From the IMG/VR virus record IMGVR_UViG_3300045988_126281: a DNA stretch of 64,000 bases, one strand, 5' to 3'. A model generated the notes under the pieces. The model saw nothing but the letters and a program-made list of their open reading frames with translations, had not been told where the DNA came from and searched no databases. Both the position numbers and the translations under genes were made by a program. Below are positions 3,301 to 63,581 of the stretch, in pieces. The DNA is from a virus. Position 1 is the first letter of the stretch; every line of letters starts with the position of its first letter.

Positions 3301-6300
3301 AGATAAAGCATTACCGCCAAGTCTAATGGCTTTAGCATAACTTTCCATAAACTTTTTATTATCAGTTTTAGCAAAAGTTTTAACAAGTTTCTCTGAATCA
3401 GATTCCTCTACGGGCAGGCTATCTTTATCTTCCGAATATAAATCTCTAAGTTCTTGATAATATTGAGCTAAATCTTGTATTTCAGCTTGACCTAAATTTT
3501 TATAAAGAATATCAAAATCTATTCTGCCAGTATCTTTATTTATACATTTATAAAGAATGTTATTGATTCGAGTATAAAGTTCTTGTTTTTTAATAATACC
3601 ATCAGTACCTTTAGGAATAAAATTTAAATCTCTATAAAACCTATAATTATAAATAGGCTGTTCATCAATATCTTTAATTAATCCAGCATCAGAATAAGCA
3701 AGTTCATTATCTGGTCTATTAAAACCTTTACTATTATCATAATTTCCATTTTCATCAATAGAACCAAATGGTTTATATTGTTCAAGTATTATATCTCTAA
3801 TCTGAGATTTTTCTTCATTAGTAAATTTAGTTCCATCAATAGTACCAAAAACATCATATAAATTAGTAGTTTTTTTATCTTTAATATCTTGAAGAAGTTT
3901 TTTAAGTTTTCTTCCATTAAGTTTATTACTATTTCTTTGAAGAACTTTAAAAGCTTTATTTATTTTATCAGAAGCTTCTTCATTAGGAATAAAAGTAGCA
4001 TTATCTCTTAACCATTCAACAGAAGCAGCATATTTAATATTTTGAAGTTTAACTTCTTCAGAATCATAAGGATGTTCTTTATTATAATTTTCAACAACAT
4101 CAAGATTATATTTAAGATTTTCTTTAAAATCTTCAGAAACAACATCTTCAAAATATTGTTTATTAAGAGCTTTCTTCTTATCAGTATATTCTTTAATAGC
4201 TAAAGCAATATTATATTGCTTCTTTTGTTCAGATTCGTTTTGAATAACAAATCCATCATCAGTAAATATCAAATCTGTATCTTCAGTATTATTATAAACT
4301 CTATTAGGATTTGAAAGATTAGCTACTTGACGTCTAAGATTAATAAGTTCTTCTTGTTGTTCTTTAGTAAGGTTTTTAGAATCATTATAAAGAGCATAAA
4401 GTTTTTGTCTTAACGTAAGATATTCTGCAAATTTATCACCAACTTTAGCAAGAACTTCTTCTCTTAATTGAATATCTTTTTTATAGTAATCATCTGGAAG
4501 TCTTTGATTAGTATTTTTAAGTTTCCATTTATCAAATTCAAGTTTTTTTCTTAAATATTCGATAGAAGTTTCTCCTTTAGTAGCACGAAGTTCATCAAGT
4601 TCTTTTTGATATTTAACTTTATCTTCTTTAAATTTATCAGTATAATCTTGAACAAATTTTCCATATTTATTAATTATTTTATTATAATCAACATTTCCTT
4701 TAGACTTAATTTCTTCAATTTTCTTTTTATATTCAGCAACCATTCTTTGTCCTTTAATTTCTTCTGTTTTAAGGACACGTTCAACCATTTTAGTAATAAC
4801 TTGAATTTGTTTATGATTAATATCGTGAATATCTCCAATCCAATGAGCACCAAACCCAGAATCTCCATAAACATCTGTAAGAGTAACAAGACCTAATTGA
4901 ACATTAGGATTAGTAGAATAATTATCTGCTAAAAATATATTAAAAACATTATCGTATGCTTTATTAATTTTAGCAATAATTTCACTATCTCCTTTTATTC
5001 TGTCAATAGTCTTAGAAAGTTTTATAAGAGCTTTTGCTGTATCAGCGTCATTACTAGTAAGATAAGCCCCAATATTAGAATAAATATTTTCTCCAAAAGT
5101 TCTAAGTTCAAGAAGAAGTTTTATAAGTCTATCAAAATCCCCTTTATTTTCTTCTTTATTAAGTTCTTTATAAAGATTAGGGTCTGATATAGAATAAGTA
5201 TTACCATCAGAAAGAGTAAAATTAGAAACATTTGCTAAAAGCTCATTAGCTTTTCTTTCATAATATCTATTAGCAATAGAATAAATATCTTTTTTATGTT
5301 CATTAACTTCTTTAATAGAATCAAGTCTAATTCCTTTACTTAAGAAAAGATTAGAATCATAAAGACCATTATAAGTATTTCCTCTATTAATAGAATATTT
5401 AATATCATTTGCTATAAGTAAAGGAAGTCTTTGCTCATCAGTAATTTCAGCAGTAGTTCCAGTTGGAATATCTATATCAAGGTCATCAAAAACAGAAGCT
5501 TCAAATTCAACTTTTTCTTCATTTCTTCTTCTAATTTCATCAGCTTCTTGTTTAACAATAGCTTCATCAGCAATAAATTCTATTTTATAAATAGACCTAT
5601 CTCTATTAGTATTGGTTTCAAAATATTTATTACCTTCTATTTCATTATCATAAAATATTTGTTCAGAAGTATCAAGAGGAGAATATTTACCTTTTTTATT
5701 AGTTTCTACATTCCATTTCTTATAAATTTTATTATTAATTCTAGTAACAGAATAAGGAGTAATTTTTATAGTAACTTTTTGGTCATTTATATAAATATCT
5801 TGAAAAATAGCACCATTTTCTTTAAGATTAAGTACACGATTAAGTTGTTCAGATGTATTATAAACAAGTCCATATTCTACATCAGCTCTTTTACCATAAT
5901 TAATATACCATTTAGTAACATCATTAACAAATTTAGAAGCAGCGTCATGTATAAGTTTTCCTTTAATAGAAGTATCAGTAAAATTATCAGCCATGACCTG
6001 CAAATAATCAGAATTAATATCTTGTTTTACATTTTTAAATTTATAAGTAGGAATTTTAGTAGTTTTATCAGATTCTGATTTTATAATTTGTTTAACATCA
6101 TCTAAAGTTAATTGAGAATTAATTTTATTAGTAACAATATCTTTATAATAGTCATAAGGTCTAAATCTATTATTTCCATTATTAATAGAATAATCAGAAG
6201 TTTCATTAGCCTCAAGTTCATTTAACGGAATAAGATAAATTCCTTGTAATTTATCGTTACGAACAATTTTATAAAGGTTATGGTTACGTTTCTTTCCAGT

Positions 6301-9300
6301 ATAATATTGAAGCTTAACATAACCTTCAGTAGAATCAGCAGTTAATCTAATTTGTTCAAGTAAATCTTGATATGACTCGGTTAAAGGAATATAAATAGAA
6401 TCATCGGAAAGAATACAATTATTAAGTTTATTTCCAAGATTCATTGTTTGTCCTTCAGTAGAATGTTTAGGAAATCTATAAGTTCTAACTAAAGCAGAAT
6501 GACTACGAACAAATTTGTCAACATAATTTTGTCTAAAATTATCATTATATTTAAGTAAATCTTTAAATCTATCATTAACAGACATAATAAGATTTTGTTT
6601 TTCATCAGTAATAGAACTCATTAATCCAAGTCCATTATTATTTATATCTGCTTTAAGAATAGAATTAGGAATTACTTTTGAAATACCATTATAAGTAAAA
6701 TTAAATCCTTCAACAATAAAAGCATATTTAACTAAATCAGCAGCAGCCATTCTTACAAAATAATTTTTATTAAAGAATGCTTCATTAAAAAGTTTAAATA
6801 TATCTTCAATATTATAATTATCAGTTTTAATAGTTATTCTATTTTTTGAATAACCTTTATTGTTAACTTCTGTTTGATTAAATTTTTGAACATTAACAAT
6901 TTCAAACAGTCCTGCATCATAATTAAACATTCGTTTTATAAATAGAACTTTTTGAGCAGGAGTAAGTCTATTATATCTATTAATAAAATCACTATGATTA
7001 GCAAGTAATTCCTTTACAGGGAGGTTTATGATTTCGTTACGATAAAGTTCTTTATCTTTACCTTCTGGAACTTCAATAGTATCTTCAATTCTATCATTTT
7101 CTTTTTCAATAAAACCATAAATTCTACCTTTTTCAGCATTCCAATATTCAAGACTTTCATTAACTTCATCAGCAATTCTTGTTCCATCTTGAACAAAAAA
7201 GCCATTTTTATTAATAGTTATTGGAGTACTTAAAACAGGAATATTGTTATATAACATAGAAACAAGATAACGTTTATAAGTATTATATTGTTCATCAGTA
7301 AATGAACGTCCAATTAATTGTTGAACATTTTTTGTAATATCATTAAAATCTTTACTTTCTGTAAGAAATAAATTTTGATTAACACTTACAGATGTAGCAG
7401 TAGAATATTTAAGAATATTAGCAAGATATTTATATTTAGATTTTTCTGTATTAATATTAATACCGTCTTCAGTATATTTATAATCAGGATAAAGAAGTTT
7501 TAAAATAGGAACTTCATTTCCGTTATCATCTATACCAAATAATTCATTAGTAGTAGGATTTTTATCATTATTTGTATAATTTTCAATATCTTCAAGAATA
7601 GCTCTTGTACTTCTTATAGTTTGTCTTGCACCATAAGAATCAGGTCTTGTACATTTAGCAATAGCATCAATACTTTGAGAAAGATAATAATAATTTCTAA
7701 ATGTTAACGCTATTCCTAAATCATAAACAAAATCTTCATAAGTATTATGTTCAGATTTAAGATTATTAACAAGAGATTCTCTTTCTATATTAGCTTTAAA
7801 TTCAAAAAGATTACTATTACCATTTTTATCAAAATTAATTTTAGTATCAAAAACTTTTTCAAAAGTTTTAATAAATTTAGAATCTTTAGATAAAGTATTA
7901 ATAATTGTAGTTAATGATTCCCCTCCATGTAAAGGAATTGCATTATATTTGGTAATAATAGATTTAATTCCTAAATCAATTGCATTACCATAATTTTTAA
8001 CAAATTGACTTAAAAGTTTATTATTTTCAACATTAATGGCAGTAATAGCAGGTTGCATTAAAAATGCAATAGCTGTTTTATAATCAATTCCTAAATCAAC
8101 AAGAGTTTTAAAAGTACTAAATGTAAACATACTTTCATTATAGATAGCACCTTCTTTAATAGCATCAAGAATATGAGCAGTTGTTTCAGAAGAATAAACT
8201 GTTACATATCTACCTATAATATTTCTATCATTTAAAGAATGCCCAAGTCTATTATGATAAACTCTTGCATAAGTAATTCCATTTTTTTCATAAACTTCTA
8301 CTTTATCACCATATGCTTCTTTAATAGTAGCTAAATCATAATCTTCTCCAAGTTTATAATCTACAATTATTCCGTGTTTAATTTGAGTTCTAAGAATATT
8401 ATTAACAGAATTAAATGTATCTCTATTAACAGAAGCTGCTTTAAGTTGTTTTCCATCAATAGCATTTTGCATAAATCTAAATTGGTCAAAAGGATTATAA
8501 GAAGAATAACTTTTTGCAGAAACTCCAATTATATCTTCAAGTTCAGATTTAGCTTCAGTAATATCATCAAAATTAGAACGAGCTTGATTTTCTTCATAAG
8601 AAGAAACATCTTGCATAATATTAACCATTTGGTCAAGAATATAATTATTTCTTTCAGCAGTAGTCATTCTTTCTTCAATAGGAAGATTTTGATATTCATT
8701 AAATGATGGAAGATGAATTTCTTTAGAAAGCTTATTAAATGCTTTTAATTGAACTAAAAGACTTGGTTTTCCTTTATCATTAATAAATGGCCCTTTAGCT
8801 GTTTCTTTAGCTTTAATAATATTTTTTTCATCAGATTTACTATTATTAAGAATATCTTTAATATAAGCAATATATCCTTTTGCCCATTCCGCTTCATTAG
8901 TTGGCTCTTTATATTCGATTTTATGGAGATTACCTTCTGAATCTTTATACATTTCATAAGAAATACCATAAATAGTATCAATATCAAAGTCAGAACCAGT
9001 TTGTCTAACCCATTCATCAGCTACTATTATAGTAGAGCCATAAGCAGAATCAACAAATCCTTTTACTTTAAGAACAGAAACTGATTGTTTACCTTCAGTT
9101 GGAATACGATAACCAATATGAATATCAAGACCTTCTGATTCCATTTTAGCAAGAAGACGTTTATCAAACTCTTCTTTAGAAAGTCCTTCTGCATTATCTT
9201 TAGTCCATTGAGGAATAAGTTTACTCCAACGTGGAAGATAAACTTCCATATAACCTGTTTCTTTAACGGTTCCATCTTCATTATAAATAGTAGGACGATA

Positions 9301-12300
9301 TTGAAGTTTATTTGAATAACCAACTCCAGTTACTTGAGCAGCATGCCAACCAGGAAGAGTTTGTCTAGTAATAGATTTATTAAACATTGCTTGAGCAATA
9401 CTTTCAAGTTTGCTTGCAACGTTATTCATAAAATTAGGCATATCTACAGAGCCATCTTCGTTTGGAGTAATATATTCAATAAAATTACTATCCATACCAA
9501 GACGTTCAGCTTCAACTCTTGCTCTACGATAAAAATCTTTAAAATTAATATTGTACTTATTAAATTCTATTTGAGAAGCAGTAAGTGGATTACCATTTTC
9601 ATCAGTAGTTTTATAGAATCTATTTTGAATTTTATTATCAACAAATTCAAGACCTATATTAAAAAGAAGTTGATTAAAACTATTTTTAATATTAGCAGAA
9701 AAAGCTGTTTGAAGATTATTTACAGATTTCTTAACAGATGGATTACCACTATTAAGATTATCTTGAATCTTCTTCATAATTTGAATACCAGCTTTATTTT
9801 CTTCATCAACCATATGGTCAATAACATCTTGTTGTTTATAAAGATTTCTATAATAATAATTTTCTACATTAGTATTATCTTTAATAGCTTCAGTAAAAGA
9901 ATCAAGTTGTAAATTTCCATTATTGTCCCATAATGTTAAAACATTTTTATTTGCAGCTTTTGATGTTTCTTTAGTATTTAATTGTGCTATATCATTATCA
10001 ACCATTAGACGATAAATATAATCTAAATCTGAACCTTTAGGAAGTAATTTTGGTATTATTACAAATTCGGCATTCTTTATCTGTCTTGGATAATAAACTT
10101 GATTAACAGAATCATAAGCAATATCATAATAAACATTCTTTTGAGGCTGAATGCGAGCATTAATTTCATTAAGCTCATCACCTGTTAACTCATAATTTTC
10201 ATCAATAAGCTTCCAAAGTAAATCTTTATAATCATTAAGAGTACCATCATAATATCTACGACGAATAAATTCATCAAGAGTAATAAAAGATTGAGCATCA
10301 TTTACTTTTGCAACAGCTTCATAACCTTTAGTGATATATTCAGCAGTGGCATTAGCCTCTTTTTCAATTTGAGATTTAGCAGCATTAATATATTTATTGT
10401 TGAGAGATTTATAATATTCATTAAATTCTTCAACAGACATTTTATAAATCTCTTCAGCAGTTTTATCTAAATGAAGTTCTTTAGCTATATTAGCAATACT
10501 TCTTCTAATTCTTTCACGATAAATTTGTTTTCTTTGTTCTTCAATTTTATCATAAGAATTAATAGTATTATAAATAGTAACAGCTCTAAATCCATTTTGG
10601 GCATAAGTTTTATCAACTTTAGTAAGACCATTAGGAGTCATAAGATTTCTACTAATAGAAACTTTTTCACCTTTATCATTAGTTAAAAGAATTTCTTCTT
10701 TATTTCCATTTCTATCAGTAACTTCTGTAATTTCGCCTCCAATTTCTTTTCCAAAATCAAATCCACTAAAAACTTTACCTCCCATTTGAGTCTCTTTAGC
10801 TCTCTTAAGAAAAGTTTGTGCATCTTTATAAAATTTATCAGAACCTTCAAATATATCATCAAATGACATATAATCAAGAGTCATATTATAAATAGCAGCT
10901 TTAATAGTGTCTTGATTTATATCAGAAGGAAGAATATCAATAAACTCTTGAGATTGAGTTTGAATATAATTATCATAGGCTTTTACCCATTCTTGTATAA
11001 TAGGATTAATAATTTCATTTACTTTTTGCTCATCAAATATTAAAGTTTTGTTATCTTTATTTGTTTGAACAAATTTAATCAATGAATGATTAGGATTGAT
11101 ATGAAGAGTTCCATTTTCTTCAATAAACAAAGGATTGTTTATGGTTTGATTATTAGCACCCTCCCTGTAAAGGGATAATGATTCTATAATCTTACGACCA
11201 TAATCAATTCCATTAATATTAAATAGTTTTCCAAAAGTAAATGCTCTACCAGCTAATTCAAGATGATTATTAACTTTTTTAATAAGTTTTCCGTCTTTTC
11301 CAAGATGATAAGTATCATAAAGATTTTTAGTATTTGTTTTAAGATTAAACTTATCATCGAAAACATTCATCACTTGAGTAATAAAATTTTGAAGTTCTCC
11401 AAGAACATTATTACGAAGTCCAATATGAACAGCTGAACTAAAATTATAACTTGTACGATTAGGAAATTCTGATTGTAAAAGAGTATAAGATTCTTGTTGT
11501 CTAATAAGATAATTAAGAATAATATCTAAAGGATTAACTTTATTGTCCGAAACTATAGAACTAATAGTAGCTTCTTTAAATATATTTCTTGTTTTTCCAG
11601 TAGTATCTCCAACTTTTTTTGCTTTAAGATAAATAACAACTCTATCTTGAGTTTCTCCAATATCAATTCCAAAAGGAAGATAATAATCTTTACCTTGTTT
11701 GATTGCTTTACTAAAAGGAAAATTAAATTCTTCTTTGATTCCATTATTTTTAATAATATTTAAAAATAGTTTAGCATTATCTTTAGTAAGCAATTCAGTT
11801 TTTGAAATTTTATTAAGAAGTTTATCTTTAATAAGTTCTTGATTAACTTTATCACTAAGATTAGCTAAATATTTATTAAAAATATCAGAATTAAGTCCTT
11901 CTTCATCAGTAATAAAAATATTATTTGTAGGAATAATAGGCATTTGAACTGTGAATATATTAGAAGCATCAGAAGGGATTCTCATAAATATATTAGTAAA
12001 ATTATTTTGTTTACTATTTGAATCTTTTAATACTTCTGAATTACTATTGTTTTTATAATTAATAGCTGCTTTAAAAGCATACATATTAGCAAGAAAATAA
12101 TCAGGCTTAGCCATTTGTTGATAAACAGTTCCATCTTGTTCAGCAACACTTCTAACGCCATCAAATAAAGCAATATCGAACGCATTAATAACATCTATAT
12201 TTGCTTTAATTCCAGCTCTATCTTTAGTAAATAAACCTTTGACTATTTGTTTACTTCCATCATTAATTCCAAATAAAATATTACTATAACGATAATATTT

Positions 12301-14580: not shown

Positions 14581-17500
14581 TTATCGACAACGGAAATTTA
14601 ATTCATTAGAATCGATTTGTGATTGAATTAAGTGCCTATCAGCAACCTCGAATCTATTTACATAATCGCCCATTGTTGATATTCGAGAAATACCATTTAA
14701 GCTAACATTTGGATTTGCAGCATAAACTTCAGCAGCAATATCATTTGAATCAGTAAGTTCATCAAACATAGAAAAATCTTCATCATCTTTAATAGTAAAA
14801 GGATTATCTGTTATATCAGAATCATCTGTTTCATCAGTAGTTGATTCATCTTCAGAAGTTAATTCTTCATCAGTAAAACCAGAAAGAAAATCATCTATAT
14901 CAGATTGTTCTTCTTGTTGTTTTTCAGTATTATCTTGAATAGTATTAGATTCTTCTTTAATTTCATTATCTTCTCTTATGGTATCAGTTGATTCTTCTGC
15001 CAATTCCTCTACGGGCAGACTGCTAATATCTTCTTCTTGTTGAATACTACTTGTAAAGTCAAGAGTACTACCAGTATCATCACCAAGAATATTATATATT
15101 TCTGTAAATATAGTATTATTTTTTGATTTATCAATACCAAATATATCGAGTATTGCATCTATAATTTTTTGAAGAAGAGATTTATGCTCTTCTTTATATT
15201 CAATAGCAGTTTCTTTACCAACAGGAATAGTATTAAGATATTGCATAAGAACACTTTGACTAAATACTTCAGAAACCCATTCTTTAGCTATTTGAATATC
15301 AGTTGTATAAGTTTTATTAAAGTTATCTGCAAAATTTCTTAATATTTCAGCATAAGCTCCATCATATGTTTCAAGAGATTTTTTAAACTCATTAAATGTA
15401 TTAACTAAAGAAATAACTTTTCCTTTATCTTTAAAGAAATCAGTTTTATCAGTAACTCTATGCATTTGTTCATGAATAAGCTCACGAAGAAGATTTTTAG
15501 GTTTATTTTGAATTTGGTCTAATCCAAGTTTACCAATAAAAATTTTACCTTTTTCTTCTTTTTTACCTTTAGTAATATATCCTCCATAAACATTACTTCT
15601 TGGTTTAATAAGAACTTCATTTGGAATAAATCCACCATCAAAACGAGCATCAGCAAATTTTTGATTAAGTTTTTTAATTTTATCTAAATCAATTCCAATA
15701 GAATTAAGCTCATCTTTAAAAGTATCAAGAAGTTCATTAGAAGTAATTGATTTCTTTTGTTTAACTTCAACAATTTTTTCAGCAGTAGTTTTTGATTGTT
15801 GAAGATGGCTTTCATTAATTTTAGGAGGAGTAATTTTTTCAAGTTTTACAAACAAAGAATTAAAGTTATAAGGCTTAGCAACAGTACCTTGAGAACCTCT
15901 TCTCATATGACTTGTAGTAACAGCATTATTACTAACAAGAAAATCAGAATAAGATTCATAAAGATGATTAAATCCACCTATATTAACTTGAATGCTTCCA
16001 TTGGCATTTCTTGTTACATATTGACTAAGTTGCTTATTTGTACCAATATCTTTAAAAGCAAAATTAGCCATATTAAATTCAAGATTTTCAGCAATAATTT
16101 CTTCAACAATATTTAATCCTGTAGAAACAGATTCATTTTTATTACGAGCATTAATCTTTTTATTTTTACCATAAAATATAATTTGATTAGTATAATAATA
16201 AATTTCATCTTGTGGAAGAACTATTTTACCTTTAGAATTAACAAGTTCTTTCTTTTTGGCATCATAAGTTACATCAGCAAATTTTTTAAAAGTAATAATG
16301 CGTTCATATTTAACTATATCTTGTTTATTCTTATATTGTCTAAGTAAATGAACGCCTGTTGAATCTTTACTGATAATAATTCCTTTAAATATAGAATTAC
16401 TTCCATAACTAAAAATAGAACTTAATTGATTGTAAAGATTATCGAAATCAATAGATGATTTATTTTTCTTAGCAAAATAATCATTAATTATTTTTGTAAG
16501 TTCATTATAAACTCCTTTATAAAGTTCTTTTGATTGAGCGACTTTATTAGTGCCATTAAATAAAGCAACAATAGGACTTCCATTTTTATTTTCTAAAACC
16601 ATTCCATAACTACCTGGCATAAAAGTGGCAGGATTATTATAATGATTTCCATTTTCATCAACACCTTCAGTAATATTTGTAAACATAATAACAGGATGTC
16701 TAGTTTTACCATTTAAAGATTTTTCTCTAACAGCTTTACCTAAACCTAAATTTCCAATATCATTTTGTTTACTACTATCATAAAGCCATTCTAATTCAGA
16801 ACTATCAAGAGATTGAAGAGTGATTTCATAATCAACTTTACCATTATCTTCTAACTGAGTTTGTAAATCATAAGTTCTGTTATAATTGTTCCAAACAGAT
16901 TGAATATAATTGTAATAAGAAAGATATAATGATTCTTTATCTAAAGATACTTTGTTATTTTGGCTTCTATAATTATAAAAAATTATACCATTAAGAGGAG
17001 AAATAATGCGTTTTTTAACTTTATTAATTAATTCATTTTTTCCTTGAGGAGATTTATTTTTAGTATTAATATCAAGAACACCAAAAGTTCCATCTTCAAT
17101 AAAAGGTTTAATTATTGGACTATTTAAAAGTTCTAAACAATAATCATAAAGAGCATCTCCTTGTAAATAAGTATTAGGATTAGCAATAAAATCAAAAAGT
17201 TTTTGATAATCTTTATTGCTTCTTTGAATAAGTTCATAAATAAATCCATCGATATTACTTTCAATACCTTCTTTTGTTTTAGTTACTTCTGGTCTAAATC
17301 CATATTCTCCTTTTCTACGATAAGTATTGCCATCAGCACTTCTATTAACAGTATCTATAAATCCAATTTCATTACCTTCTTCATCAACAAAACTAAGAGA
17401 AGCTGGGTCTTTTTTAGCTCCAACCCAACGTTCAGTTTTTTTAACAAAAATTTTCTGTCCAATAGATTTTTTAATAGTAGTTGGACTTTTAGTAGCATTT

Positions 17501-20500
17501 TGCCCAACTTGAATATGCAAACTATTTTCAGAAATTTCAACTGAAGTTGCAGCATTATATAAATCATCAAGTATTTTAGAAGTAGAATTATTAAGATATT
17601 CTATATTTCTAAAAGAATATCCTAAAGATTCAGTATGAGCAAAACTAATTTTAGTTTTAACATTTTCCCCTATTGTAAATTGAAATCTTGCAATTTTTCT
17701 AAGACCTTCAAGAACAGTAAGAAAATCATCAAGAGTAATTTGTTTAGCAACATCAGTTTCATTTTTTCTCATCTGTTGATAAAAATAATTAATAACATCT
17801 TTCATATCAATTACAGTAAGTTCTTTACCGTTTTTGATAATATGATTTCTACCAACAGTGTTAAGATATTCTTTAAAAGTATCTTCAATTAATTTTTTAA
17901 TAGAATCTTCATCATTAATTTCATCGAATCTACTAAAATTTCTATTGCTTGTAACATCAAGATTACCTTGATGAATAATTGTTTCAAGGTTAGCAATTAT
18001 TTGTTTAAGAGCAGGAATTACTTTATTTGCAGCTTTAGAATTAACTGATTCAGCTCTTTGTTGAATGTAGTACATTGTTCTTGAAAGAGCAATAGGAGCT
18101 TCTATTTCTGCTTCAGCCTTATCATAGCCTTGACTAACTAAATCAGAAATGATAGCATCAATAAAACTTTGACGAGCTACATTATCGTTAGGATAATTTA
18201 AAAGATTTTCATAAAGTTCTTTATGCTTAATAAGAATATTAAAAGAACTTTGATAAGCAGCTTCTTTTATATCAAGTTTAGTATTGCCAAACATTTCAGC
18301 TTCTTCAGTAAGAACTTTTTCTTCTTCAGCAGTCGGCCTAGATTCAACTTCGTTTTCATCAATAACTGGCTCAGTAGCAATTTGATTTTCTTCAGAAACA
18401 TATTCAATACTTTCAGAAGTATTATCAATAACTTCATCTGATTGTTCTTCCTTTACAGGGGAACTTATAGGAGTTGTTTTCAGAACATTAACTTCTATTG
18501 GAGGAGTTTTAGTTTCTTCAGAAGTAGTTGAAACAGTAAGAACAGATTCATCTGTCCTGCCCGTAGAGGAATCAGTTTCTATTCCATCATTTTCCACTCT
18601 ATTTTCATTAGCTTCATTTTGTGCTTGTCTATCAAGTTTGGCTTGAATAGCCATATCAAATAAACTATTAATTGTTTCTCTATTATTAGCACCAATTTTA
18701 AGAGTAAGCATGTCATTATGAAGCCTACGAGAAATATTAGTGTCATTAAGTAAATCATTAATAGCTTTTTCAGTATCTTCTGCTCTATCAATATAATCAA
18801 TAACTCTATTTAACGAATCTCCATAACGAGATGCTGCATTAGTAACAACTTGGCTTTCTATATCTTCAAAATACTTTTGTAATTCTTTTTTACCTTTAGG
18901 AATCCAAGAAGAATATATAGCATCATCAACATAAAGATTAGCACGAGCAAAAGCTTTTCTTAATTGTTCGTTAGTATAAGTTCCTGCTTCAAAAACTTTA
19001 GGTTTATAAAGTTCTTCAAACTTAATTTGAATTTCGTCAATAGTTTCTTGATTAATTTTAATACCAGAATCTTTAATGTATGTTTGGAAATCGCCAATAG
19101 TGTTTTGAGCAGCAAGATTTAAAAGACCTTCTTTTGCTTCATTAAGTTCTTTAAGTCTTGATTGATAACCGGCTTCAGATAGCGCTCTTCCATTAGTATC
19201 AATTTTACCTCGTTTAGAATTTAAATCAGTAATTTGTCTATCAATAGCAATAAGATTTTCATTAATTATATCATCAAGACTTTGGTTTAATAATTCTGTT
19301 TCAGAAACAATATCTGAATCTATATCAAGTTGATTTTTTTCTTCTCTAATTCTATCAACTTTATTTTGAAGTCTTGTAAGACTTTTAGCAGCTATTCTTG
19401 CAATATCGTTATTTACTATGTCAGTGTTATCAATAAAATCAAAAAGATTTTGATTATATCTTTCAACAACTTTATCCATAGTGTTAATAAGACTTTGTTC
19501 AAGCTGAGAATCTATTTGAATACCTTCTTGTTCATAATATTTATTAAACTCTTTGCTTGAAACAAATTCTTTAAGCAAATCATAGTTACCGTTTTCAGCA
19601 GCATTAATTGCAATATCGGTAACAAAATTATCAGTAGCTTGTTTTCTAAGTCTATTTTCTTGTTCTTCACTAATTGTATCAGCAAGTTCGTTAGAACCTT
19701 CTTTAGTCTCAAAAGGATTTTTATGTTCAGCAATTTGTCTCATTTGCTCAACATAATTATTCATTAAATTAAAACGATTATTAATATCATTAACACGAGC
19801 AACATTTTCACCTAATTCAAGAGCATCATACTGTTCTTGAGTTATTTTACCAGCTTTCTTTTTATAATTATTTTCAAGACGATTATAAAATTTTCCAAGA
19901 CCTCCTCCAGCAATTTTAAATCCAATTCCGCCTATAACTCCCCAAAATGCTTGGTCCCAAATACTTCCATCAGTTAAATAATCAGCAGCAGTTTTAGCAG
20001 TATAATTAGGGTCTGTATAAATATTAACAAGTTCTTCTCCACGTTGTTGTTGAATACCTTGCCAACCTTCTTCTATACCTTCACCAAGTTCAAGGACTCT
20101 CCAAGAATTTAATGGATTTTTAATATCAGTAGCAAGTCCTTTTAAAAATTTATTTTTAAGACTTTTCTCAACAGCTTTTTCATCAATAACTGCACCAGTC
20201 TTTTTTGCAAGATTAATAATAGATTCTGCTTGAGCTTTTCTAACAGCACCTGTAAGAGCTTTATTTTCTATACCTTTCCAAATATTAGAAATAGCTTTAA
20301 ATTGAGGAATATCCATAGCGAGTAAATACATATCATTAACATACGTATTATGACCTGCTTCAGAAGCAATTTTTTTAGCAATTTCTTCTTTAGAAAGTTC
20401 TGCAAATTGAGGATTATTTTCAATAAAAGTTTTATAATCGTTATCTGACATATTAGATAGTTCATTATTCATACTATCTAATACAGAGGTATAAACATCA

Positions 20501-24009: not shown

Positions 24010-27000
24010 AATTAAAACTTAAAGGACGATAACCAAACTGTCTTGCAAGTTTAGGAAGTTCATTATCCATATAGGAAATTGCATTAGGATTAGAAGCAGC
24101 AATCACTGCTCTATCAAGAGCTTCTCTATTTCTTGTTTCTCGTCTATCAAAATAATCTCCAACAACTCCAGCAACATTTTGCGCAAGACTAACTTTGTTT
24201 TCAGCATTAAGCTCTGCAAGTTTATTATCCATTTCGGCTTTCCGTCTAAGATAATCATTAACAAGCTGAGTATTTTGTTGAGAAGTTCTTTGAGCATTAA
24301 GAATATCTTGATTAATTAATTGAGTTTCAATATTCTCTTTTTGCCCATAAAGTTCATTAGTATTTCTTATACCAATATTTCTATATTGTTGCCTTCTTGC
24401 TAAATCAGTTCGAGAACTTGCAGTATTATGTTTACTTTCGTCAATCATAGCATTAACTTGCTCACGAGTAGAATCAAGTTGAGGATTAATGTTATAATTA
24501 GTTTTAAGTTTATATCTTTGATAAGGAACATAATTATTAACTTTCATTCTATCAATCATATCTTTATTAATCTTATAAGAAGCAATAGAACCAACTAAAT
24601 CAGCAGTACCTCTAATTAAATCAGAACCAATACTAAAACCAGAAGCAGCTTTAGGTTGCCTGCCCGTAGAGGAATTGATAGTTCCTATTGCATTTTGTTT
24701 TGTAACATCTTCTGCAATATTAGTAGGAATACTATTATTTTTATAAATAATATTTCCTGGTTGAATTTGCATAAATCCAATAGGAAATTTAGGTAAAACT
24801 GCAATTTTATCTTCAGTACCTAATCTAGCTTGTTTTACTTTTCCATAATAATCATATTTTGCTTTAGAAGTATCTCCCCAAGCATAACTTTTATTTGGAA
24901 GTTGTCTTATATCAGCACTGTCTACAACAATATTATATGAAGATTTAGCAAGTTTTCCAGCTGAACTAGGAAGTGCTTTTCCGATTATATTAGAAATTAA
25001 ATTTATATCTTGTTGATTAGCATAAGATTTATTATTTTTATCTTTATCAATTGTATATTTTGTATAAATTGGCTGTGGAATTTCAGAACTTTTATTAATA
25101 ATAATTGGTTTTACAACTGTTTCTTTAGAAATAGGTTTTACAGGATTATTAATTATATTTTCAATTTCTGCTTTTCTATAAGAAGCATAATCTTTATATT
25201 CATCTGATTTAGGAGTATTTTGTTTACTTTTTCTAAAAGTTTCTTGAATTTTACGTTTATTATCTGAAGTTTTTAATTCAGGAACATTAATAATAGAAGG
25301 AGCTAAATCCATTTGAATATCAGGAACTGAAATACTAGAATCTTCTATTTTAAGATTATTAATATATTTATCGTTTATTTTAGAAATTCTATTTAAAGTT
25401 CTTTGTAAAGATTTGCTTATAGGAATTTCTTTTTTAGTATAGGTAATACCTTGTTTAAAAGTAGTATTAGGATTTTCTATTTTATTAACTTTATGAATAA
25501 GTTTTGTTCCTCTAAGTTTTCTAGGAATAAATTCTTCATCAAGAGTATTATACATTCTACCAAACCAACCATTTGGTGTAGAAATATATTTTATATTTCC
25601 TTTATCGTCAACAGCAAGTGGCCCATATTCACCGGTAATAGGAGCTTTAGTAGAACCTCCAATTTGATTAGTATAGCCTTGAATAAGTTGTTCTTGATTA
25701 TTTCTAAGATAATCTTCAAAATCTAAATTAGATTCTTTAATATCATTATCAATTTGTTTAGAATTTTCTTCTAAAAGTTTAGAAATATAATCATTAATAT
25801 TAAAAGTATTGTTTCCACCAAGAGCATTTCTTCTAAATTTAGCGATTTTAGGACTTTTATTGTTAATCATAATAGGAGTTTGTCTAATAACTTTTTTTCT
25901 ATTTTCTTCTTTTCTATTCTCTTTAATATCTTTCATAAGATTAGCTGTATAATTCATTGCAGCAATGGTACTAGGTGATAAAGCAGTTACAATAGATGGT
26001 TGAAGATTAAGGCTTTCAATTTGCATATCCTCAACTTTAGTACCAAGATTAGCTTTTTTAAGACTTGGATATTTAGCATAAACTTTAGTTTTAACATCAT
26101 TTCTTCCATGAAGTTCTGCAAGTCTTAAAGCATCAATAGCATCAGCTTTTGTAGGAATAGGATAACTTCTATTTCCTCCAGCAAAATAAGAAGAATTTAC
26201 ATTAGGATAAGGTTTTCTTTTAGAACCATAATCTTGTTTTCTACTTAAGCCTCCAATACGTTTAATATTATATTTTTTACCATTTTCTTGAATCCATTTT
26301 TGAACATCAGGACTAGATATAGCTTTATTACCAGCGGCTCTGACATCATTAGAATGATTTTTATCATCAGGATTATAAAGACCTCTTTTATACATAGTAA
26401 AACCGTGTTGAAGAGGAGATTCAATATTGATTAAATCATTGTTTTTACTTCCCTTATAACCTTTATTATGATATTCATAATCATTAATAAGATATTCAGC
26501 AGGAATACCACCATAATTTCTTGCATAAGACATATTAAAATGAGCTCTAACTTTATCTTTATCCATACCAGCAGGAACAGCAATAGTAGGCATAGCTCCA
26601 CCATGAGTTTCTTGAACAGCAAGCCCTAATGCTTCATTAAAAGGAATTTTAGCTTTATTTGCATTTACAGCAATAGAATCAAGCATATTAGAAGACATTC
26701 TTCCAGCACCGCGAACTTTTATTTCTTTATCATAAAGATATGGTATATAATATTTTTTACTATTAGAAGTAGACCCGTGCTTACTTATAGTTTTATTTAC
26801 ATAATCTTCATATCCACCACTAACTTCTTTAGTAGGACTATCATTTTGTTTAACTCTACTAAAACGTCCAAGTCTAGCACTAGTTCCGTCATCTTTAAGA
26901 TGATTTTTATCTTTAAATTTTTCTTGAGCATTAAAAACATCTTCAGGATTAATTCCTTTAATAACTAATTCAGCAGGACTATTTCCATTAAGAATAGGTT

Positions 27001-45823: not shown

Positions 45824-46400
45824 CTTTAAGATACTTACTAGTCACTTCATTAATAAAATCAGTAGTACGAATTGTTATTTTATTATGTATATTATATATT
45901 CTTTGTTCTTTAGTAGCAGATTCATCAAATATAATATTAGTAATATCTTCAATTATATTGTTTTTCCAATCAGAATTAATATAATCAACAACATGTTTAT
46001 TATTATTAGAATAAAGTATTAATTCATTATAAAGAGAAGCAAATTCTCCATAGACAGTATGCTTTATATTATCAATTATATTACTTCTATTGCGATTAAC
46101 ATTATTTGATATAATAGTAAAAGTACTAAATTTAACTATTGAATATGCCATGCCTTTAAAGGCAGTTCTAATAGATGAAACACAACGGTCATCTTCTTTT
46201 TCTATAATGCCCTTAGTAATATAAGTTAAAAAAGAATTAAGTTTATTAGCCGCATCAAGAAGTTCAGCATTAACTTTTATTGTCTTTCTGTTTGATTCTC
46301 GTTCTTTTTTATTATCGAGAATTTTAGTAATAACTAAATAACTAAATATAACTAAAGTTGGAAGCCAACCGTATTCAAAACCTTTAAAAAGCCATTCCAT
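45813..46400 (-). CDS. Membrane-anchored hypothetical protein (195 aa)
   Basis: N-terminal TM helix (WLPTLVIFSYLVITKIL). Preceded by the post-stop 16-mer plus a terminator-like hairpin. Confidence 0.35.
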   Translation of the reverse strand: MEWLFKGFEYGWLPTLVIFSYLVITKILDNKKERESNRKTIKVNAELLDAANKLNSFLTYITKGIIEKEDDRCVSSIRTAFKGMAYSIVKFSTFTIISNNVNRNRSNIIDNIKHTVYGEFASLYNELILYSNNNKHVVDYINSDWKNNIIEDITNIIFDESATKEQRIYNIHNKITIRTTDFINEVTSKYLKDGK

Positions 46401-52191: not shown

Positions 52192-52283
52192 TGCAAAATA
52201 GTCTATATCTGATTAGTACCACATTCAATACTATAAAAGTGCATTAGAGCGCAAAGAAAGTGCTAATAAGGCAAAATTAAACT

Positions 52284-52323
52284 GCCTGTAAAGGAGTATT
52301 CAGTCGATTCCTTTACAGGCAGT
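52284..52323. terminator. Perfect 13-bp hairpin made of two inverted copies of the 17-nt motif (bidirectional terminator-like)
   Basis: ctgcctgtaaagg-(14 nt)-cctttacaggcag. T-rich tracts on both sides (TTTAATTTT minus-sense, TTTGCTATT plus-sense). Lies between the portal and scaffold-like genes. Confidence 0.5.
52311..52323 (-). repeat. 17-nt motif copy (minus-sense), 3' arm of the intergenic hairpin
   Basis: Pairs perfectly with the copy at 52284-52296. Confidence 0.8.
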
Positions 52324-57022: not shown

Positions 57023-57355
57023 TTATTTTAAAATTAAACCAATTAAAAGACCTATAATACAGCCACTACTTATAATAGTAACTGTTTTATAAGTCTTTAT
57101 ATTTTTAGAAAGTTTTTCGTTAAGAACTGTTGCATTAGCAACAGTTTTTCGACATTCTCCAATAACAATATTTTGTTCTATAATATATTTATCTTTTTGG
57201 ATTATAAGAGAATCTTTTAAAATATTAAGGTCTTTATAATATTCTCGTTCAATAAGTTTAGCATTAATTTGTTTAATTTGTTCAAGATTAAGAGTAATAC
57301 TAGTATCAGCTTTTTGGTAAACTCCCTGTAAAGGAATGTGTTTATTACTTGCCAT
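57023..57355 (-). CDS. Small tail-anchored membrane protein (~111 aa; start moved to internal Met MASNK)
   Basis: The ORF-track version (to 57478) overlaps the upstream gene by 134 nt in another frame. ATG at 57353-57355 removes the overlap. Has a C-terminal TM helix (TVTIISSGCIIGLLIGLILK). Confidence 0.35.
   Translation of the reverse strand: MASNKHIPLQGVYQKADTSITLNLEQIKQINAKLIEREYYKDLNILKDSLIIQKDKYIIEQNIVIGECRKTVANATVLNEKLSKNIKTYKTVTIISSGCIIGLLIGLILK
57322..57334 (+). repeat. 17-nt motif variant (CTCCCTGTAAAGGAATG) at the start of the 111-aa membrane-protein gene
   Basis: One mismatch (G3 to C). Encodes HIPLQGV. Confidence 0.5.
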
Positions 57356-58365: not shown

Positions 58366-58734
58366 TTAATTGTTTAATGTACGTTTAATCCAACCTTTAT
58401 AATATTTCATTTGAGAAGGTTTCTTATCAACAATATCAGTATATTTTCTGATACGTTCAAGTTTATATTTATAATAAAAAGTATTAGCTTTAGCATCTTT
58501 AATTGAATCTATATAAAGTTTTATTTTTTCATCTCTTTTAGCAAGTTCAACTTCATATAAATCTATACAATCTTGTTTAATACTTAACTGCCTGTAAAGG
58601 GAATCAATAACTTTTGTAGTACTATCTTGATAATTTCTATTAACTTTATCAGCATCAATTACAATAGTTTCAATTCTTCTTCCACAACTTATAAGAAGAA
58701 AACTGAAAATTAATAAAATTTGTAATTTTTTCAT
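58366..58734 (-). CDS. Lipoprotein (122 aa), o-spanin-like
   Basis: Signal peptide with lipobox (MKKLQILLIFSFLLISC). Adjacent to the lysis genes. Confidence 0.45.
   Translation of the reverse strand: MKKLQILLIFSFLLISCGRRIETIVIDADKVNRNYQDSTTKVIDSLYRQLSIKQDCIDLYEVELAKRDEKIKLYIDSIKDAKANTFYYKYKLERIRKYTDIVDKKPSQMKYYKGWIKRTLNN
58588..58600 (+). repeat. 17-nt motif copy (CTGCCTGTAAAGGGAATC) in the lipoprotein gene
   Basis: Encodes DSLYRQL. Confidence 0.75.
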
Positions 58735-58736
58735 AT

Positions 58737-59735: not shown

Positions 59736-59747
59736 TGTAACTTTATG

Positions 59748-61957: not shown

Positions 61958-62042
61958 TATATCATAACTTTTACAATTTCTGCAACTAATATACGCATTT
62001 TTTGTAAAAATTCAAATAATGTTTATATTAGTCTTAGTAATC

Positions 62043-62055
62043 CTGCCTGTAAAGG
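62043..62055 (+). repeat. 17-nt motif copy (CTGCCTGTAAAGGAATT) in the divergent intergenic region
   Basis: Non-coding. Lies between the minus-strand block start (61957) and the plus-strand gene start (~62094). Confidence 0.8.
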
Positions 62056-62093
62056 AATTGTTATATTTAATGATATTATTATACCTTATGATA

Positions 62094-62740
62094 TGATTAA
62101 TAAAACTGAAATAAAATTTACTGCCTTTAGTATTACTTCTGTTCGTGCTGAACAAAAATCAGAAGATAATAATGCAACTCCTAAATTTAGAATTAATACT
62201 GATAAAAAAGGACAAATGTATTTTAGAGTTAAGCAAGAAGAATTTAATCGTCTTGAAAGACTTAGACAAAGTATTGCTTGTACTCCTTTTGAAGTTAAAG
62301 ATAAATATCCAAGTTCAATGCCTGTTGATACTGTTATTAATGATGGAATTTATTGTTTAATTGAGCCTTATAAATTATTTGAAATAGCTGACAGACTTCC
62401 AAAGAATTGTTTTAAATATTTTCTTATTCTTTGTAAAGAACTTCTTCCTGATACAAATATTATTACTTTAGTTGGAACAGAAGTTGCTAAAAAATATGGT
62501 TTTGATGTTAGTCATATTCAAAACTATAATGCTATTCTTTGTGATTTGCAAATTATAGTTAGAACTGATGTTCAAAGTACTTTTGTAATTAATCATAATA
62601 TTATTTATAAAGGTGACCTTAATAAATTTTCTAAAAACTATAAAGAAATTTATAATGATTCTGTTCCAGAACGTATTAATTATACAAAGATAAAACTTAG
62701 TAATAAAAAAGCTTATGTTAACAAGAATAAAACGGATTAA
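62094..62740 (+). CDS. Hypothetical plus-strand protein (~215 aa; start trimmed to MINKTEIKF)
   Basis: The ORF-track start at 61925 would run through the divergent promoter region and overlap 61481-61957. The internal ATG at 62094 is more plausible. Confidence 0.35.
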
Positions 62741-63460: not shown

Positions 63461-63473
63461 CTGCCCGTAGAGG
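63461..63473 (+). repeat. 17-nt motif copy (CTGCCCGTAGAGGAATG), 5' arm of a long-range inverted pair
   Basis: Non-coding. Pairs with 63569-63581 across 88 nt. Confidence 0.8.
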
Positions 63474-63568
63474 AATGAGCTATTGCAATTCCAATTGTTG
63501 CTTATGGTAAGATTCATAATGATATTTGTTGTAATCATTATCTTATTAGTGGGCAAGATGATGCCATT

Positions 63569-63581
63569 CCTTTACAGGCAG
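63569..63581 (-). repeat. 17-nt motif copy (minus-sense CTGCCTGTAAAGGAATG), 3' arm of the long-range inverted pair
   Basis: Pairs with the C/G variant at 63461 in 15 of 17 positions, with one G.U wobble and one C.A mismatch. Confidence 0.8.

Follow-up and report, generated by a model that had tools for sequence, protein, structure and literature searches.

What might be the role of a short G+C-rich sequence that recurs on both strands of an A+T-rich phage chromosome, mostly inside genes? The question is raised by the window, a stretch of 64,000 nucleotides of viral DNA, in which an asymmetric motif of 13-17 bases is repeated. This motif is the window's local version of a DNA signal conserved among crAss-like phages of the gut. 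CTGCCYGTARAGG has 12 exact matches in the window and none in 100 dinucleotide shuffles, a control that the sequence-only reading had proposed. With up to one mismatch allowed, 18 matches are found against 0.06 expected, and a weight-matrix scan detects 20 copies against 0.1 in shuffles, so the motif is genuine and sequence-specific, as had been claimed. Similarity between copies ends at ~17 nt. The 16 copies listed earlier stand, most of them at the right coordinates. Three were off by 1-2 nt (corrected starts 11161, 52282 and 52310) and four others had been overlooked: 7011(-), 46153(-), 7923(+) and 18450(-). The copies outside the inverted pairs at 52282..52322 and 63461..63581 are as follows.

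3405..3417, minus strand: CTGCCCGTAGAGG(AATC), sense in the 4708-aa ORF 328-14454, peptide DSLPVEESDSE
7011..7023, minus strand: CTCCCTGTAAAGG(AATT), one mismatch, sense in ORF 328-14454, previously overlooked
7923..7935, plus strand: degenerate CTCCATGTAAAGG(AATTG), antisense in ORF 328-14454, previously overlooked
11161..11173, plus strand: CTCCCTGTAAAGG(GAT), antisense in ORF 328-14454
15006..15018, minus strand: CTGCCCGTAGAGG(AATT), sense in the 2235-aa ORF 14581-21288, peptide SSLPVEELAEE
18450..18462, minus strand: degenerate TCCCCTGTAAAGG(AAG), sense, found by weight matrix, previously overlooked
18557..18569, plus strand: CTGCCCGTAGAGG(AATC), antisense in ORF 14581-21288, peptide TDSSTGRTDES
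24660..24672, plus strand: CTGCCCGTAGAGG(AATT), antisense in ORF 23984-27202
28030..28042, minus strand: CTGCCCGTAGAGG(GATT), sense in the 1398-aa ORF 27707-31903
28284..28296, plus strand: CTGCCTGTAAAGA, one mismatch, antisense
32575..32587, plus strand: CTGCCTGTAAAGG(AATT), antisense in ORF 32028-32873
41821..41833, plus strand: CTGCCCGTAGAAG, one mismatch, antisense in ORF 40653-42200
46153..46165, minus strand: degenerate, palindromic-looking CTGCCTTTAAAGG in ORF 45813-46400 of the head-gene region, previously overlooked
57322..57334, plus strand: CTCCCTGTAAAGG(AATG), antisense in ORF 57023-57478, a small one directly upstream of the large terminase gene
58588..58600, plus strand: CTGCCTGTAAAGG(GAAT), antisense in ORF 58366-58734
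62043..62055, plus strand: CTGCCTGTAAAGG(AATT), close to the 5' end of ORF 61925-62740, the first one on the plus strand, whose C-terminal part is similar to crAssphage RepL proteins

ORF 328-14454 encodes a protein homologous to the virion RNA polymerase protein of crAssphage, and its degenerate copy at 7923 has a weight-matrix score of 26.4, a level with ~0 matches in shuffles. The recount places 15 or 16 of the 20 copies within genes, rather than 11. The four sense copies in large genes all share one frame, L-P-V-E/K-E/G, and a stop (TAG or TAA) is present in one of the other sense frames. Among antisense copies all three frames occur, mostly reading S-[SF]-T-G-R. Copies lie in either orientation, in several frames and also between genes, so conservation acts on the nucleic acid and not on the peptide, in line with the initial view.

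The motif is present in relatives and conserved at homologous positions, the comparison by which the sequence-only reading was to be judged. The signal evidently ranges over the family Intestiviridae, subfamily Crudevirinae, including the prototype crAssphage. Its core is the top over-represented oligomer in related Intestiviridae, with 32 copies in crAssphage, 32 in cr3_1, 27 in the cultured Rudgehvirus jaberico and 5-8 per 22 kb in IMG/VR relatives. Across these phages the core CC-Y-GT-R-R-AGG is invariant and the flanks are lineage-specific. In a 90%-identical relative, 14 of the 14 testable window copies are orthologous and free of indels, and the core differs at one of 126 positions (core positions 1-11 minus the two variable ones) against a flank divergence of 12.6%; the copy at 3405 has its orthologue there despite flanks of just 77% identity. 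In cr3_1, with a portal protein 66% identical, three of seven mappable window copies occupy exactly orthologous positions: 28030 maps 1 nt from cr3_1 site 19027, 32575 corresponds to site 14364 and 57322 lies 1 nt from site 81697. crAssphage and the 66-73% relatives also carry a copy at about the same portal-gene offset as 57322. The copies are evidently old and under selection. They are not explained by any known mobile element or by an assembly artefact, and the suggestion that the motif has no obvious known counterpart agrees with our searches: Rfam contains no family matching it, and in the library searched by full text no paper names both the motif sequences and crAss phages. A genome-collection scan gave single matches only and 72 kb of Bacteroidales DNA contained no extra copies; Rudgehvirus (host Bacteroides cellulosilyticus) and crAss001 (host B. 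intestinalis) carry differing motifs. This suggests that the motif is phage-private and not enriched in the bacterial DNA sampled.

The C..G / T..A covariation described earlier is strict in the window (20/20 copies) but absent in cr3_1, Rudgehvirus and crAssphage. Even in the 90% relative, 4 of 17 copies are discordant at these positions, among them the orthologue of 11161, which reads CTCCCCGTAAAGG; the orthologues of 15006 and 24660 are CTGCCTGTAGAGG and CTGCCCGTAAAGG. C..A is found in 11 of 32 cr3_1 copies, all four combinations are present in Rudgehvirus, and among crAssphage strains the variable positions change independently of each other within a single site. Given the discordant copies in relatives, contact between the two positions, or their symmetrical reading, is not supported as a general feature. 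Two propagating sub-families are not supported either: orthologous copies change state through single transitions, without insertions.

The motif recurs about every 3 kb along the entire chromosome, in either orientation. Genes contain 70-80% of the copies, roughly half of them sense and half antisense, and the motif is 3-4 fold enriched in intergenic DNA. Coding constraint is weakest where the copies lie, either between genes or in protein segments of low conservation; 3 of 20 copies could be mapped, compared with 50% of random positions. Single copies between genes lie 8-20 nt past the stop codon of the upstream gene, to which most are antisense (~12 versus 1-2). Spacing is more even than chance in crAssphage and cr3_1 (P 0.001-0.01), and for copies on the same strand its CV is 0.31-0.56, with P down to <2e-4; the plus-strand copies of Rudgehvirus are unevenly spaced (CV 0.87). 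Of 107 neighbouring pairs of copies, 72 are inverted (P=2e-4); at distances up to 500 bp, 20 pairs are inverted and none direct (P=1e-6), and inverted pairs 80-120 bp apart recur. The 9-nt motif of crAss001 shows similar alternation and even plus-strand spacing. In the window alone, alternation is not significant (10/19) and evenness is marginal (CV 0.45, P=0.03, close pairs merged). Two divergent inverted pairs, 18450(-) with 18557(+) and 28030(-) with 28284(+), are ~107 and 254 nt apart. The clustering near tail and lysis genes noted before does not hold, as relatives have a uniform genome-wide density with replication modules included. The head genes (42-52 kb), previously thought to lack the motif, contain the degenerate copy at 46153, which is conserved in both relatives.

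The other two inverted pairs are as follows.

52282..52322, both strands: tight inverted pair of copies 52282(+) and 52310(-), starting 8 nt past the stop codon of the portal gene (52355-54772, minus strand)
63461..63581, both strands: inverted pair of copies 63461(+) and 63569(-), at the base of a ~130-nt palindrome

Both had been described as hairpins, and folding confirms this (z=-4.8 for the first and about -3 for the second: -3.35 and -2.97 as RNA, -2.8 as DNA). On the mRNA strand the first pair gives a 16-17 bp stem followed by UUUAAUUUU and is terminator-like; its 13-nt loop kept it from being called in a simple terminator scan. One arm is altered in a 96% relative, where by eye the mRNA strand retains a G-U pair. 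The second pair is ~200 nt upstream of another RepL-like gene, which starts near the window end (L044:5543-6151) and whose product is 30% identical to crAssphage gp43; gp43 and gp88 of crAssphage both have Pfam RepL matches. Altogether, pairs fold strongly at four of five loci tested (z ~-3 to -11), the exception being a cr3_1 pair (z=-1.3).

We tentatively favour, with a probability of roughly 40%, a cis-acting DNA signal that would be kept by selection across crAss-like phages and read by a phage factor. Reading would probably be orientation-dependent, because each strand separately bears a regularly spaced set of copies. The phage-encoded factor would act on DNA and co-evolve with the motif, and could be an enzyme tracking along DNA from either direction. 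The motif might then be a phage-private analogue of Chi, or of a primosome or priming site, serving the replication-recombination enzymes that the phage itself encodes (PD-(D/E)XK exonuclease, RecT-like annealase, helicase-primase). Secondary uses are possible for tight inverted pairs: the post-portal pair may be a terminator-like hairpin in RNA, and the pair beside the RepL-like gene a palindrome, A+T-rich at its centre, that resembles an origin or operator. We infer the tracking enzyme purely from copy geometry, and several points speak against it. Selection to avoid deletions between direct repeats of 17-27 bp could instead produce the alternation and the lack of close direct copies; an annealase and an exonuclease are among the phage's gene products. 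The motif, conserved over 17-24 nt without interruption, is also longer than one would expect of a Chi-like or primase signal. Finally, the antisense post-stop position of intergenic singles points to a transcription- or RNA-related constraint that the tracking model leaves unexplained.

In a possible but rather doubtful alternative, the copies would be orientation-independent architectural or regulatory sites, each bound by a DNA-bending or nucleoid-type protein of the phage so as to fold, compact, insulate or regulate its chromosome. Inverted neighbours would be a by-product of selection against direct-repeat deletions, a view that the 20 inverted and 0 direct close pairs fit. It counts against this view that the 9-nt motif of crAss001 alternates likewise, since nine bases are too short for repeat recombination. 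Candidate binders are two adjacent IHF/HU-like proteins of the structural module, annotated in crAssphage, cr3_1, Rudgehvirus and crAss001. An IHF-type footprint covers ~17-27 bp, the size of this asymmetric site, but known IHF sites are A+T-rich. In favour of the alternative are the uniform density across the genome and the recurrent inverted pairs, whose distance of 80-120 bp would be expected of a wrapped or looped complex. A further point against it is that the IHF-like gene of phi14:2 is a middle gene of unknown role (10.1101/2020.03.07.982082).

Programmed single-strand nicks, made here on both strands by a phage nickase, are an improbable explanation suggested by analogy. Phages such as T5, the phiKMV-like phages and tf are nicked at a consensus sequence, and the present motif is likewise a dispersed asymmetric consensus of similar length, strictly conserved on both strands. 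Several metagenomic contigs of relatives (L217, L207, L223 and L026) begin 0-50 nt from a copy, yet assembly-graph breaks at a 24-27 nt repeat would be equally expected to end contigs there. T5 nicks are confined to one strand, unevenly spaced and dispensable, a poor fit with family-wide conservation.

It is also improbable that the motif acts in RNA, whether through transcript hairpins, 3'-end stabilisers or terminators, or through alternating sense and antisense copies pairing as long-range duplexes for RNA processing. The post-stop antisense singles would suit such a role, and in cr3_1 and crAssphage a short stem containing G-U pairs, with a UAC(G) loop, is possible in the antisense RNA. 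A third of the cr3_1 copies and many of those in Rudgehvirus, however, lack an intact putative closing pair. Tight pairs make strong hairpins, the post-portal one with a U-rich tail, and copies lie within strong terminator-like hairpins at cr3_1 10878 (z=-5.6) and crAssphage 63695 (z=-5.5), but single long copies with flanks fold no better than shuffles (z ~-0.5 to +0.7), so that the RNA-structure option raised initially has little support. The even split of genic copies between sense and antisense and the lack of an Rfam match also disagree with it, and long duplexes in essential coding regions would do harm.

Very improbable is a selfish or passive repeat devoid of phage function (a miniature mobile element, a gene-conversion family or uptake-sequence-like molecular drive), for which one could cite the two sub-family-like variants of the window, the CGCT-rich upstream extension of some crAssphage copies and features typical of DNA uptake sequences (both orientations, restricted genic frames, inverted pairs as terminators), but none of the 14 orthologous sites has an insertion or deletion polymorphism, similarity stops at the motif, interiors of the inspected pairs are unrelated by eye, variants interconvert through point transitions at fixed sites, certain sites keep exactly the same position across genera, random insertion would not give even spacing and the annotations examined include no transposase-like gene.

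Among known systems, REP/BIME elements of enterobacteria and pseudomonads are similar in being short G+C-rich repeats past stop codons, with inverted neighbours acting as mRNA-stabilising or terminating hairpins, and REPs share the GT(A/G)G tetranucleotide with the crAssphage motif. They are strictly extragenic imperfect palindromes tied to a RAYT transposase, whereas our motif is mostly genic, its single copy forms no stable hairpin and no RAYT-type transposase is annotated. DnaA boxes and other initiator sites resemble it in their asymmetry, in inverted copies within an A+T-rich palindromic region beside an initiator-like (RepL) gene and in single copies scattered around the chromosome. The phage motif differs in having no many-copy cluster marking a single origin; RepL is absent from the motif-bearing cr3_1 and Rudgehvirus.

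Nick-site consensi of T5, phiKMV-like phages and tf are also dispersed, ~10-20 nt long and free of coding meaning. These sites are few (4-14), mostly on one strand and unevenly spaced, and they are defined by physical nicks, while the phage motif is known here from sequence alone. Stoperators of the Cluster A mycobacteriophages L5 and Bxb1 are asymmetric 13-14 bp sites with 20-35 copies per genome, bound by one phage protein. They are mostly intergenic, oriented with transcription and serve the immunity repressor of a temperate phage; in contrast, 70-80% of our copies are genic with orientation balanced within genes, and the annotations include neither a repressor nor an integrase. DNA uptake sequences (Neisseria DUS, Haemophilus USS) have a 10-12 nt core in both orientations, many genic copies in few tolerated frames and post-gene inverted pairs that double as terminators. 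They are found in bacteria with natural competence, where an uptake receptor drives them; our motif, by contrast, is evenly spaced per strand in a lytic-type phage that has no uptake step.

Chi sites of RecBCD/AddAB are likewise an over-represented asymmetric oligomer found over the whole chromosome at ~1 per 3-5 kb, in genes and between them, read directionally by an enzyme moving along DNA, so that each strand needs its own copies. Chi is 5-8 nt long, host-owned, abundant in the host chromosome and skewed with replication direction, whereas the phage motif has 10-24 conserved nt, is strand-balanced, alternating and unenriched in the sampled bacterial DNA, and differs between a B. cellulosilyticus phage and a B. 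intestinalis phage.

The dispersed G+C-rich word is strongly over-represented in the window. CTGCCYGTARAGG has 12 exact matches there and none in 100 shuffles that preserve dinucleotides. If one mismatch is tolerated, 18 matches are found against 0.06 expected, and a weight matrix trained on the copies detects 20 sites against 0.1 in shuffled sequence, so the enrichment claimed in the sequence-only reading is real. The list of 16 copies offered there was incomplete (those at 7011, 7923, 18450 and 46153 had been overlooked), and three of its coordinates were wrong by 1-2 nt. Aligned window copies have about 17 nt in common, c/a-CTGCCYGTARAGGAAT-y, and the flanks beyond are unrelated.

Since the minus strand carries every long ORF up to position 61,957, 15-16 of the window copies are genic. 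The four sense copies located in large genes use a single frame (L-P-V-E/K-E/G), and one alternative sense frame of the motif holds TAG or TAA. Antisense copies are found in three frames, S-[SF]-T-G-R being the commonest product. The peptides encoded at the copies are acidic and serine-rich, e.g., DSLPVEESDSE and TDSSTGRTDES. As the copies occur in both orientations, in several frames and also between genes, conservation at the peptide level is ruled out and must operate at the level of nucleotides, as had been proposed.

The window includes virion RNA polymerase genes, tail, head and packaging genes and a switch into a plus-strand block. No tRNA or tmRNA fragments were found in a search across the window, and ten small ORFs near the switch of strand had no Pfam matches. 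The portal protein shares 56% identity with its counterpart in Carjivirus communis (prototype crAssphage), 66% with that in cr3_1 (Diorhovirus) and 44% with that in Rudgehvirus jaberico, and these three phages all belong to Crudevirinae (Crassvirales, Intestiviridae). Among deposited phages, megablast with the head region returned just one short unannotated record and no close annotated relative. IMG/VR contains a relative of 91 kb that is about 90% identical, and two contigs reach about 96%.

The motif is shared by this group. In IMG/VR relatives with 66-73% identity, CCCGTAGAGG is the top G+C-rich 10-mer, with 5-8 copies per 22 kb. The corresponding words are (t)AgACYCCCCGTRGAGGATGGA in prototype crAssphage (32 copies), gyTCCCCCGTA[G/A]AGGAA in cr3_1 (32 copies) and CCCCTGTA[A/G]AGGAG in Rudgehvirus (27 copies), their over-representation under a third-order Markov model having P values of 1e-15 to 1e-37. 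The core CC-Y-GT-R-R-AGG is invariant among these phages while the flanks vary by lineage, giving 10-24 conserved positions. The copies are spread through the whole genomes of the relatives, replication modules included. The CC-Y-GT-R-R-AGG motif is absent from crAss001, a phage of another family (Steigviridae).

Two of these genomes have additions to the motif. Most copies of Rudgehvirus jaberico (NC_091965) have GTAA about 8 nt upstream of the core, e.g., GTAATCACCCCTGTAAAGGAG, so the footprint extends to about 22-24 nt and includes a short GTAA direct repeat. About 7 of the 32 copies of crAssphage (BK010471), namely those at 6014, 28069, 28165, 44945, 58719, 93659 and 95857, are lengthened on their upstream side by 25-35 nt of (N)CGCT pentamer repeats, in many cases around a small hairpin. 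The stems of this hairpin vary by copy (AGTGC/GCACT, GGCAC/GTGCC, GAGC/GCTC, GGAC/GTCC), and the overall folding of the extended copies is no stronger than that of shuffles.

The 90% relative covers 14 window copies, and each has an ortholog in it. Alignments are free of gaps at the motif, the one short indel being in a flank, and several copies are embedded in flanks of just 77-88% identity. Motif positions 1-11 without the two variable ones have 1 mismatch in 126 compared with 12.6% flank divergence; with all eleven non-variable positions taken together, 6 of 154 are mismatched, while random windows give about 14 (P=0.02). Seven window copies could be mapped onto cr3_1, and three of these are within 1-2 nt of a cr3_1 copy. 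Thus the motif is present at homologous positions in relatives, which speaks against the chance duplication considered in the sequence-only reading. Upstream of the terminase gene, crAssphage strains have a copy whose distance from the portal gene is close to that in the window. Many of the remaining sites are lineage-specific, and therefore turnover accompanies conservation. A degenerate copy in the head region, 46153-46165 (GCCTTTAAAGGC), differs from all the others in being a perfect 12-bp palindrome, and both relatives retain it.

The copies favour weakly constrained sequence: 3 of 20 fall within tblastx homology to crAssphage compared with 50% of random positions. Two giant minus-strand ORFs, 328-14454 (4708 aa) and 14581-21288 (2235 aa), match the crAssphage virion RNA polymerase proteins gp44/gp45 by position; tblastx detects no homology to crAssphage or cr3_1 for parts of both, and these parts hold six of the eight motif copies of the two ORFs. 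Intergenic DNA is enriched 3-4 fold in copies and accounts for only 20-30% of them, the other 70-80% being genic.

Strict covariation of two positions was claimed for the window, and there it holds: all 20 copies are concordant (C..G or T..A). Elsewhere it breaks down. In the 90% relative, 4 of 17 copies are discordant while their window orthologs are concordant, so state changes are single transitions. In cr3_1 the first position stays C and the second is G or A, C..A occurring in 11 of 32 copies by our own reading of the listed copies. Rudgehvirus copies show all four combinations, and among about 25 crAssphage strains the two positions flip independently at one site. A closing pair of a GTA triloop, broken as it is in four relatives, is no family rule. 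Both positions are best described as transition-tolerant, and the preference for concordance is confined to the lineage of the window.

The arrangement of the copies is regular. Spacing of all copies is more even than random in crAssphage (CV 0.67, P=0.01; 0.42, P=0.001 with pairs merged) and cr3_1 (CV 0.61, P=0.001) and marginally so in the window (CV 0.45 after merging pairs, P=0.03). The largest gap is about 7 kb compared with about 12 kb expected. The regularity resides in copies on one and the same strand:

Same-strand spacing of motif copies
crAssphage, plus strand: CV 0.31, P <2e-4
crAssphage, minus strand: CV 0.50, P 0.004
cr3_1, plus strand: CV 0.41, P 2e-4
cr3_1, minus strand: CV 0.44, P 6e-4
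Rudgehvirus, minus strand: CV 0.42, P 6e-4
Rudgehvirus, plus strand: CV 0.87, not significant
Window, plus strand: CV 0.56, P 0.04

Strand counts are balanced (12:8, 18:14, 16:16 and 13:14) and orientations alternate: 72 of 107 neighbours are inverted (P=2e-4), with 23/31 in cr3_1, 21/31 in crAssphage, 18/26 in Rudgehvirus and 10/19 in the window. Pairs less than 500 bp apart comprise 20 inverted and no direct ones (P=1e-6), and a centre-to-centre distance of 80-120 bp recurs.

crAss001 (MH675552, 1-100000) has a 9-mer of its own, CTCCAGAAG, with 27 copies against 1.7 expected (P=5e-23). It occurs on both strands, 25 of the 27 copies being genic and divided about equally between sense and antisense; of 26 neighbouring pairs, 19 are inverted (P=0.015), and the plus-strand copies lie at even intervals (CV 0.46, P=0.002). 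A literature search for CTCCAGAAG together with crAss phages found no paper. The case of crAss001 suggests that the phenomenon is possibly general in Crassvirales.

Overall, the motif is a phage-private DNA-level signal which is maintained by selection and evenly covers both chromosome strands. We infer that it is read by a phage-encoded factor. Reading is probably directional, since each strand has its own regular set of copies. An enzyme that tracks along DNA in replication or recombination is one candidate for the reader; the role of the motif would then be Chi-like or priming-site-like, but phage-owned. In its general form, this reading says that Crassvirales genomes are punctuated by a private, lineage-specific, asymmetric DNA word, regular on each strand and alternating, for a phage-encoded machine that would read it while moving along DNA in either direction. 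We hold it tentatively, at a probability of roughly 0.3.

The main rival is an architectural protein, e.g., an IHF/HU-like pair, which would bind the motif without regard to its orientation. The excess of inverted neighbours would then be a mere result of selection against deletions between direct repeats; regular sets on each strand are what points to a directional reader instead. It is also possible that the copies are nick sites. Like the punctuation reading, such DNA-only models leave one feature unexplained: intergenic single copies, located mostly 8-20 nt past the upstream stop codon, are antisense to the upstream gene in about 12 cases and sense in 1-2. Action at the RNA level is possible as well. 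Strong hairpins incorporating a copy are found at 10878 in cr3_1 (z=-5.6) and 63695 in crAssphage (z=-5.5). The cr3_1 case (10878-10935) is a very strong terminator hairpin of the canonical type with a U-run behind it; its 5' arm overlaps an intergenic copy, whose G-run contributes to the stem. For single copies, a structured RNA is not supported: there are no Rfam matches at the gathering threshold, seven long crAssphage copies folded with their flanks do not differ from shuffles (z between -0.5 and +0.7), and the one pair that covaries in the window does not do so in cr3_1, Rudgehvirus or the 90% relative.

Inverted pairs of the window are a separate matter. The relevant features are as follows:

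52282-52322: inverted pair 52282/52310, beginning 8 nt past the portal stop codon (z=-4.8)
63461/63569: inverted pair forming the basal arms of a palindrome some 130 nt long; a RepL-like gene follows about 200 nt downstream
61925-62740, start of the plus-strand block: RepL-like ORF; a second one, preceded by the palindrome just named, belongs to 63461-64000 (continued in another contig, L044:5543-6151)

On the mRNA strand, the pair 52282/52310 forms a 16-17 bp stem with the U-rich tail UUUAAUUUU. This stable G+C-containing hairpin placed after a stop codon and followed by a U-run is a predicted intrinsic terminator; a simple terminator scan did not call it because the loop limit of the scan was 8 nt.

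As in the window, the crAssphage genes gp43 and gp88, both assigned to Pfam RepL, are preceded by motif-pair palindromes, whose centres are A+T-rich and whose folding reaches z=-7 and z=-11. Inverted copies within an A+T-rich palindrome adjoining an initiator (RepL) gene are arranged as origin repeats are, and the motif-flanked palindromes upstream of RepL-like genes are candidate replication origins or operators. The pairing with RepL is suggestive but not general, because tblastn down to E=5 found no RepL in cr3_1 and Rudgehvirus and Pfam RepL was absent among seven cr3_1 candidates. Since both phages carry the motif without a detectable RepL, this protein was rejected as the general reader.

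Promoters of the virion RNA polymerase are an unlikely function, as early transcripts of phi14:2 have no common upstream motif, its middle and late promoters are sigma-70-like (10.1101/2020.03.07.982082), and half of the window copies are antisense inside genes. A host-derived motif of the Chi or uptake type was rejected on scans of bacterial and other genomes standing in for the true host chromosomes, which showed no enrichment: a 16-mer scan of 185,579 genomes gave only single, chance-level matches among the first 120 listed, and 72 kb of Bacteroidales DNA held no copy besides the seeding one. The mobile mini-element allowed for by the sequence-only reading does not agree with 14 of 14 sites being gap-free at the motif without presence/absence polymorphism, with unrelated flanks and with inspected pair interiors which look unrelated. 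Recombination or module boundaries are dismissed since identity to the 90% relative is unchanged across the sites.

crAss-like phages are the most abundant human gut viruses and, to our knowledge, little is known about their replication, recombination and DNA organisation. A conserved word of 13-24 nt is present about 30 times per genome, is evenly distributed over both strands and is kept even within hypervariable genes, and so signals a process whose importance is such that it constrains the chromosome as a whole. If the punctuation reading is true, the motif would be a virus-owned counterpart of Chi or primosome sites and would belong to a previously undescribed class of viral chromosome-architecture signal, of which the unrelated-looking crAss001 9-mer (27 copies of like geometry) would be a second instance; the phenomenon would then extend to the whole order and could be tested in cultured phages. 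Two such systems exist, namely Rudgehvirus jaberico, grown on Bacteroides cellulosilyticus, and crAss001, grown on B. intestinalis. The motif provides a pull-down bait, targets for mutation and positions for nick, end-mapping or ChIP data, and it is a compact marker of its phage family. It may also account for metagenomic contigs of these phages breaking at fixed places. Several independent metagenomic contigs of relatives start 0-50 nt from a copy: L217 (at its start), L207 (nt 18), L223 (nt 50) and L026/L188 (nt 39). These starts could be assembly-graph breaks at a 24-27 nt repeat or true physical ends or nicks.

Neither a keyword literature search for such a motif nor a full-text search with core sequences and crAss terms found a relevant paper. 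The motif resembles in part Chi, DNA uptake sequences, stoperators, phage nick-site consensi, REP elements and DnaA boxes. Chi sites are abundant in the host chromosome because they are read by host RecBCD/AddAB, whereas the motif gave only single matches among the first 120 listed from the genome collection and no enrichment in the 72 kb of Bacteroidales DNA sampled; Chi is also shorter (5-8 nt) and skewed with replication direction, while the motif has 10-24 conserved positions, is strand-balanced and alternates. DNA uptake sequences share with it both orientations, few genic frames and inverted pairs acting as terminators (predicted for the motif), but require a competent bacterium with a sequence-specific uptake receptor, the motif being found in phage genomes only and showing no enrichment in the bacterial DNA sampled. 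Stoperators of Cluster A mycobacteriophages are likewise dispersed asymmetric sites of 13-14 bp within one phage genome. They are bound by the phage immunity repressor, are mainly intergenic and follow transcription in their orientation, while genic copies of the motif are about half sense and half antisense; annotations of the relatives include no repressor or integrase.

The nick-site consensi of T5, phiKMV and tf correspond to a physical single-strand break in virion DNA, while the motif is known from sequence alone. MITE-like elements show indel polymorphism or target duplications and whole-element similarity, which the motif does not, nor are there identity change-points at its sites. The REP/BIME-RAYT unit is an extragenic imperfect palindrome, in contrast to a motif that is predominantly genic and whose single copies fold like shuffles. 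Initiator sites need an initiator gene wherever they occur, and the motif occurs without a detectable RepL in cr3_1 and Rudgehvirus. Wherever a comparison could be tested, the motif lacks a defining feature of the known system. It is one more of the known genome-wide over-represented cis signals, with a real chance of being a class of its own.
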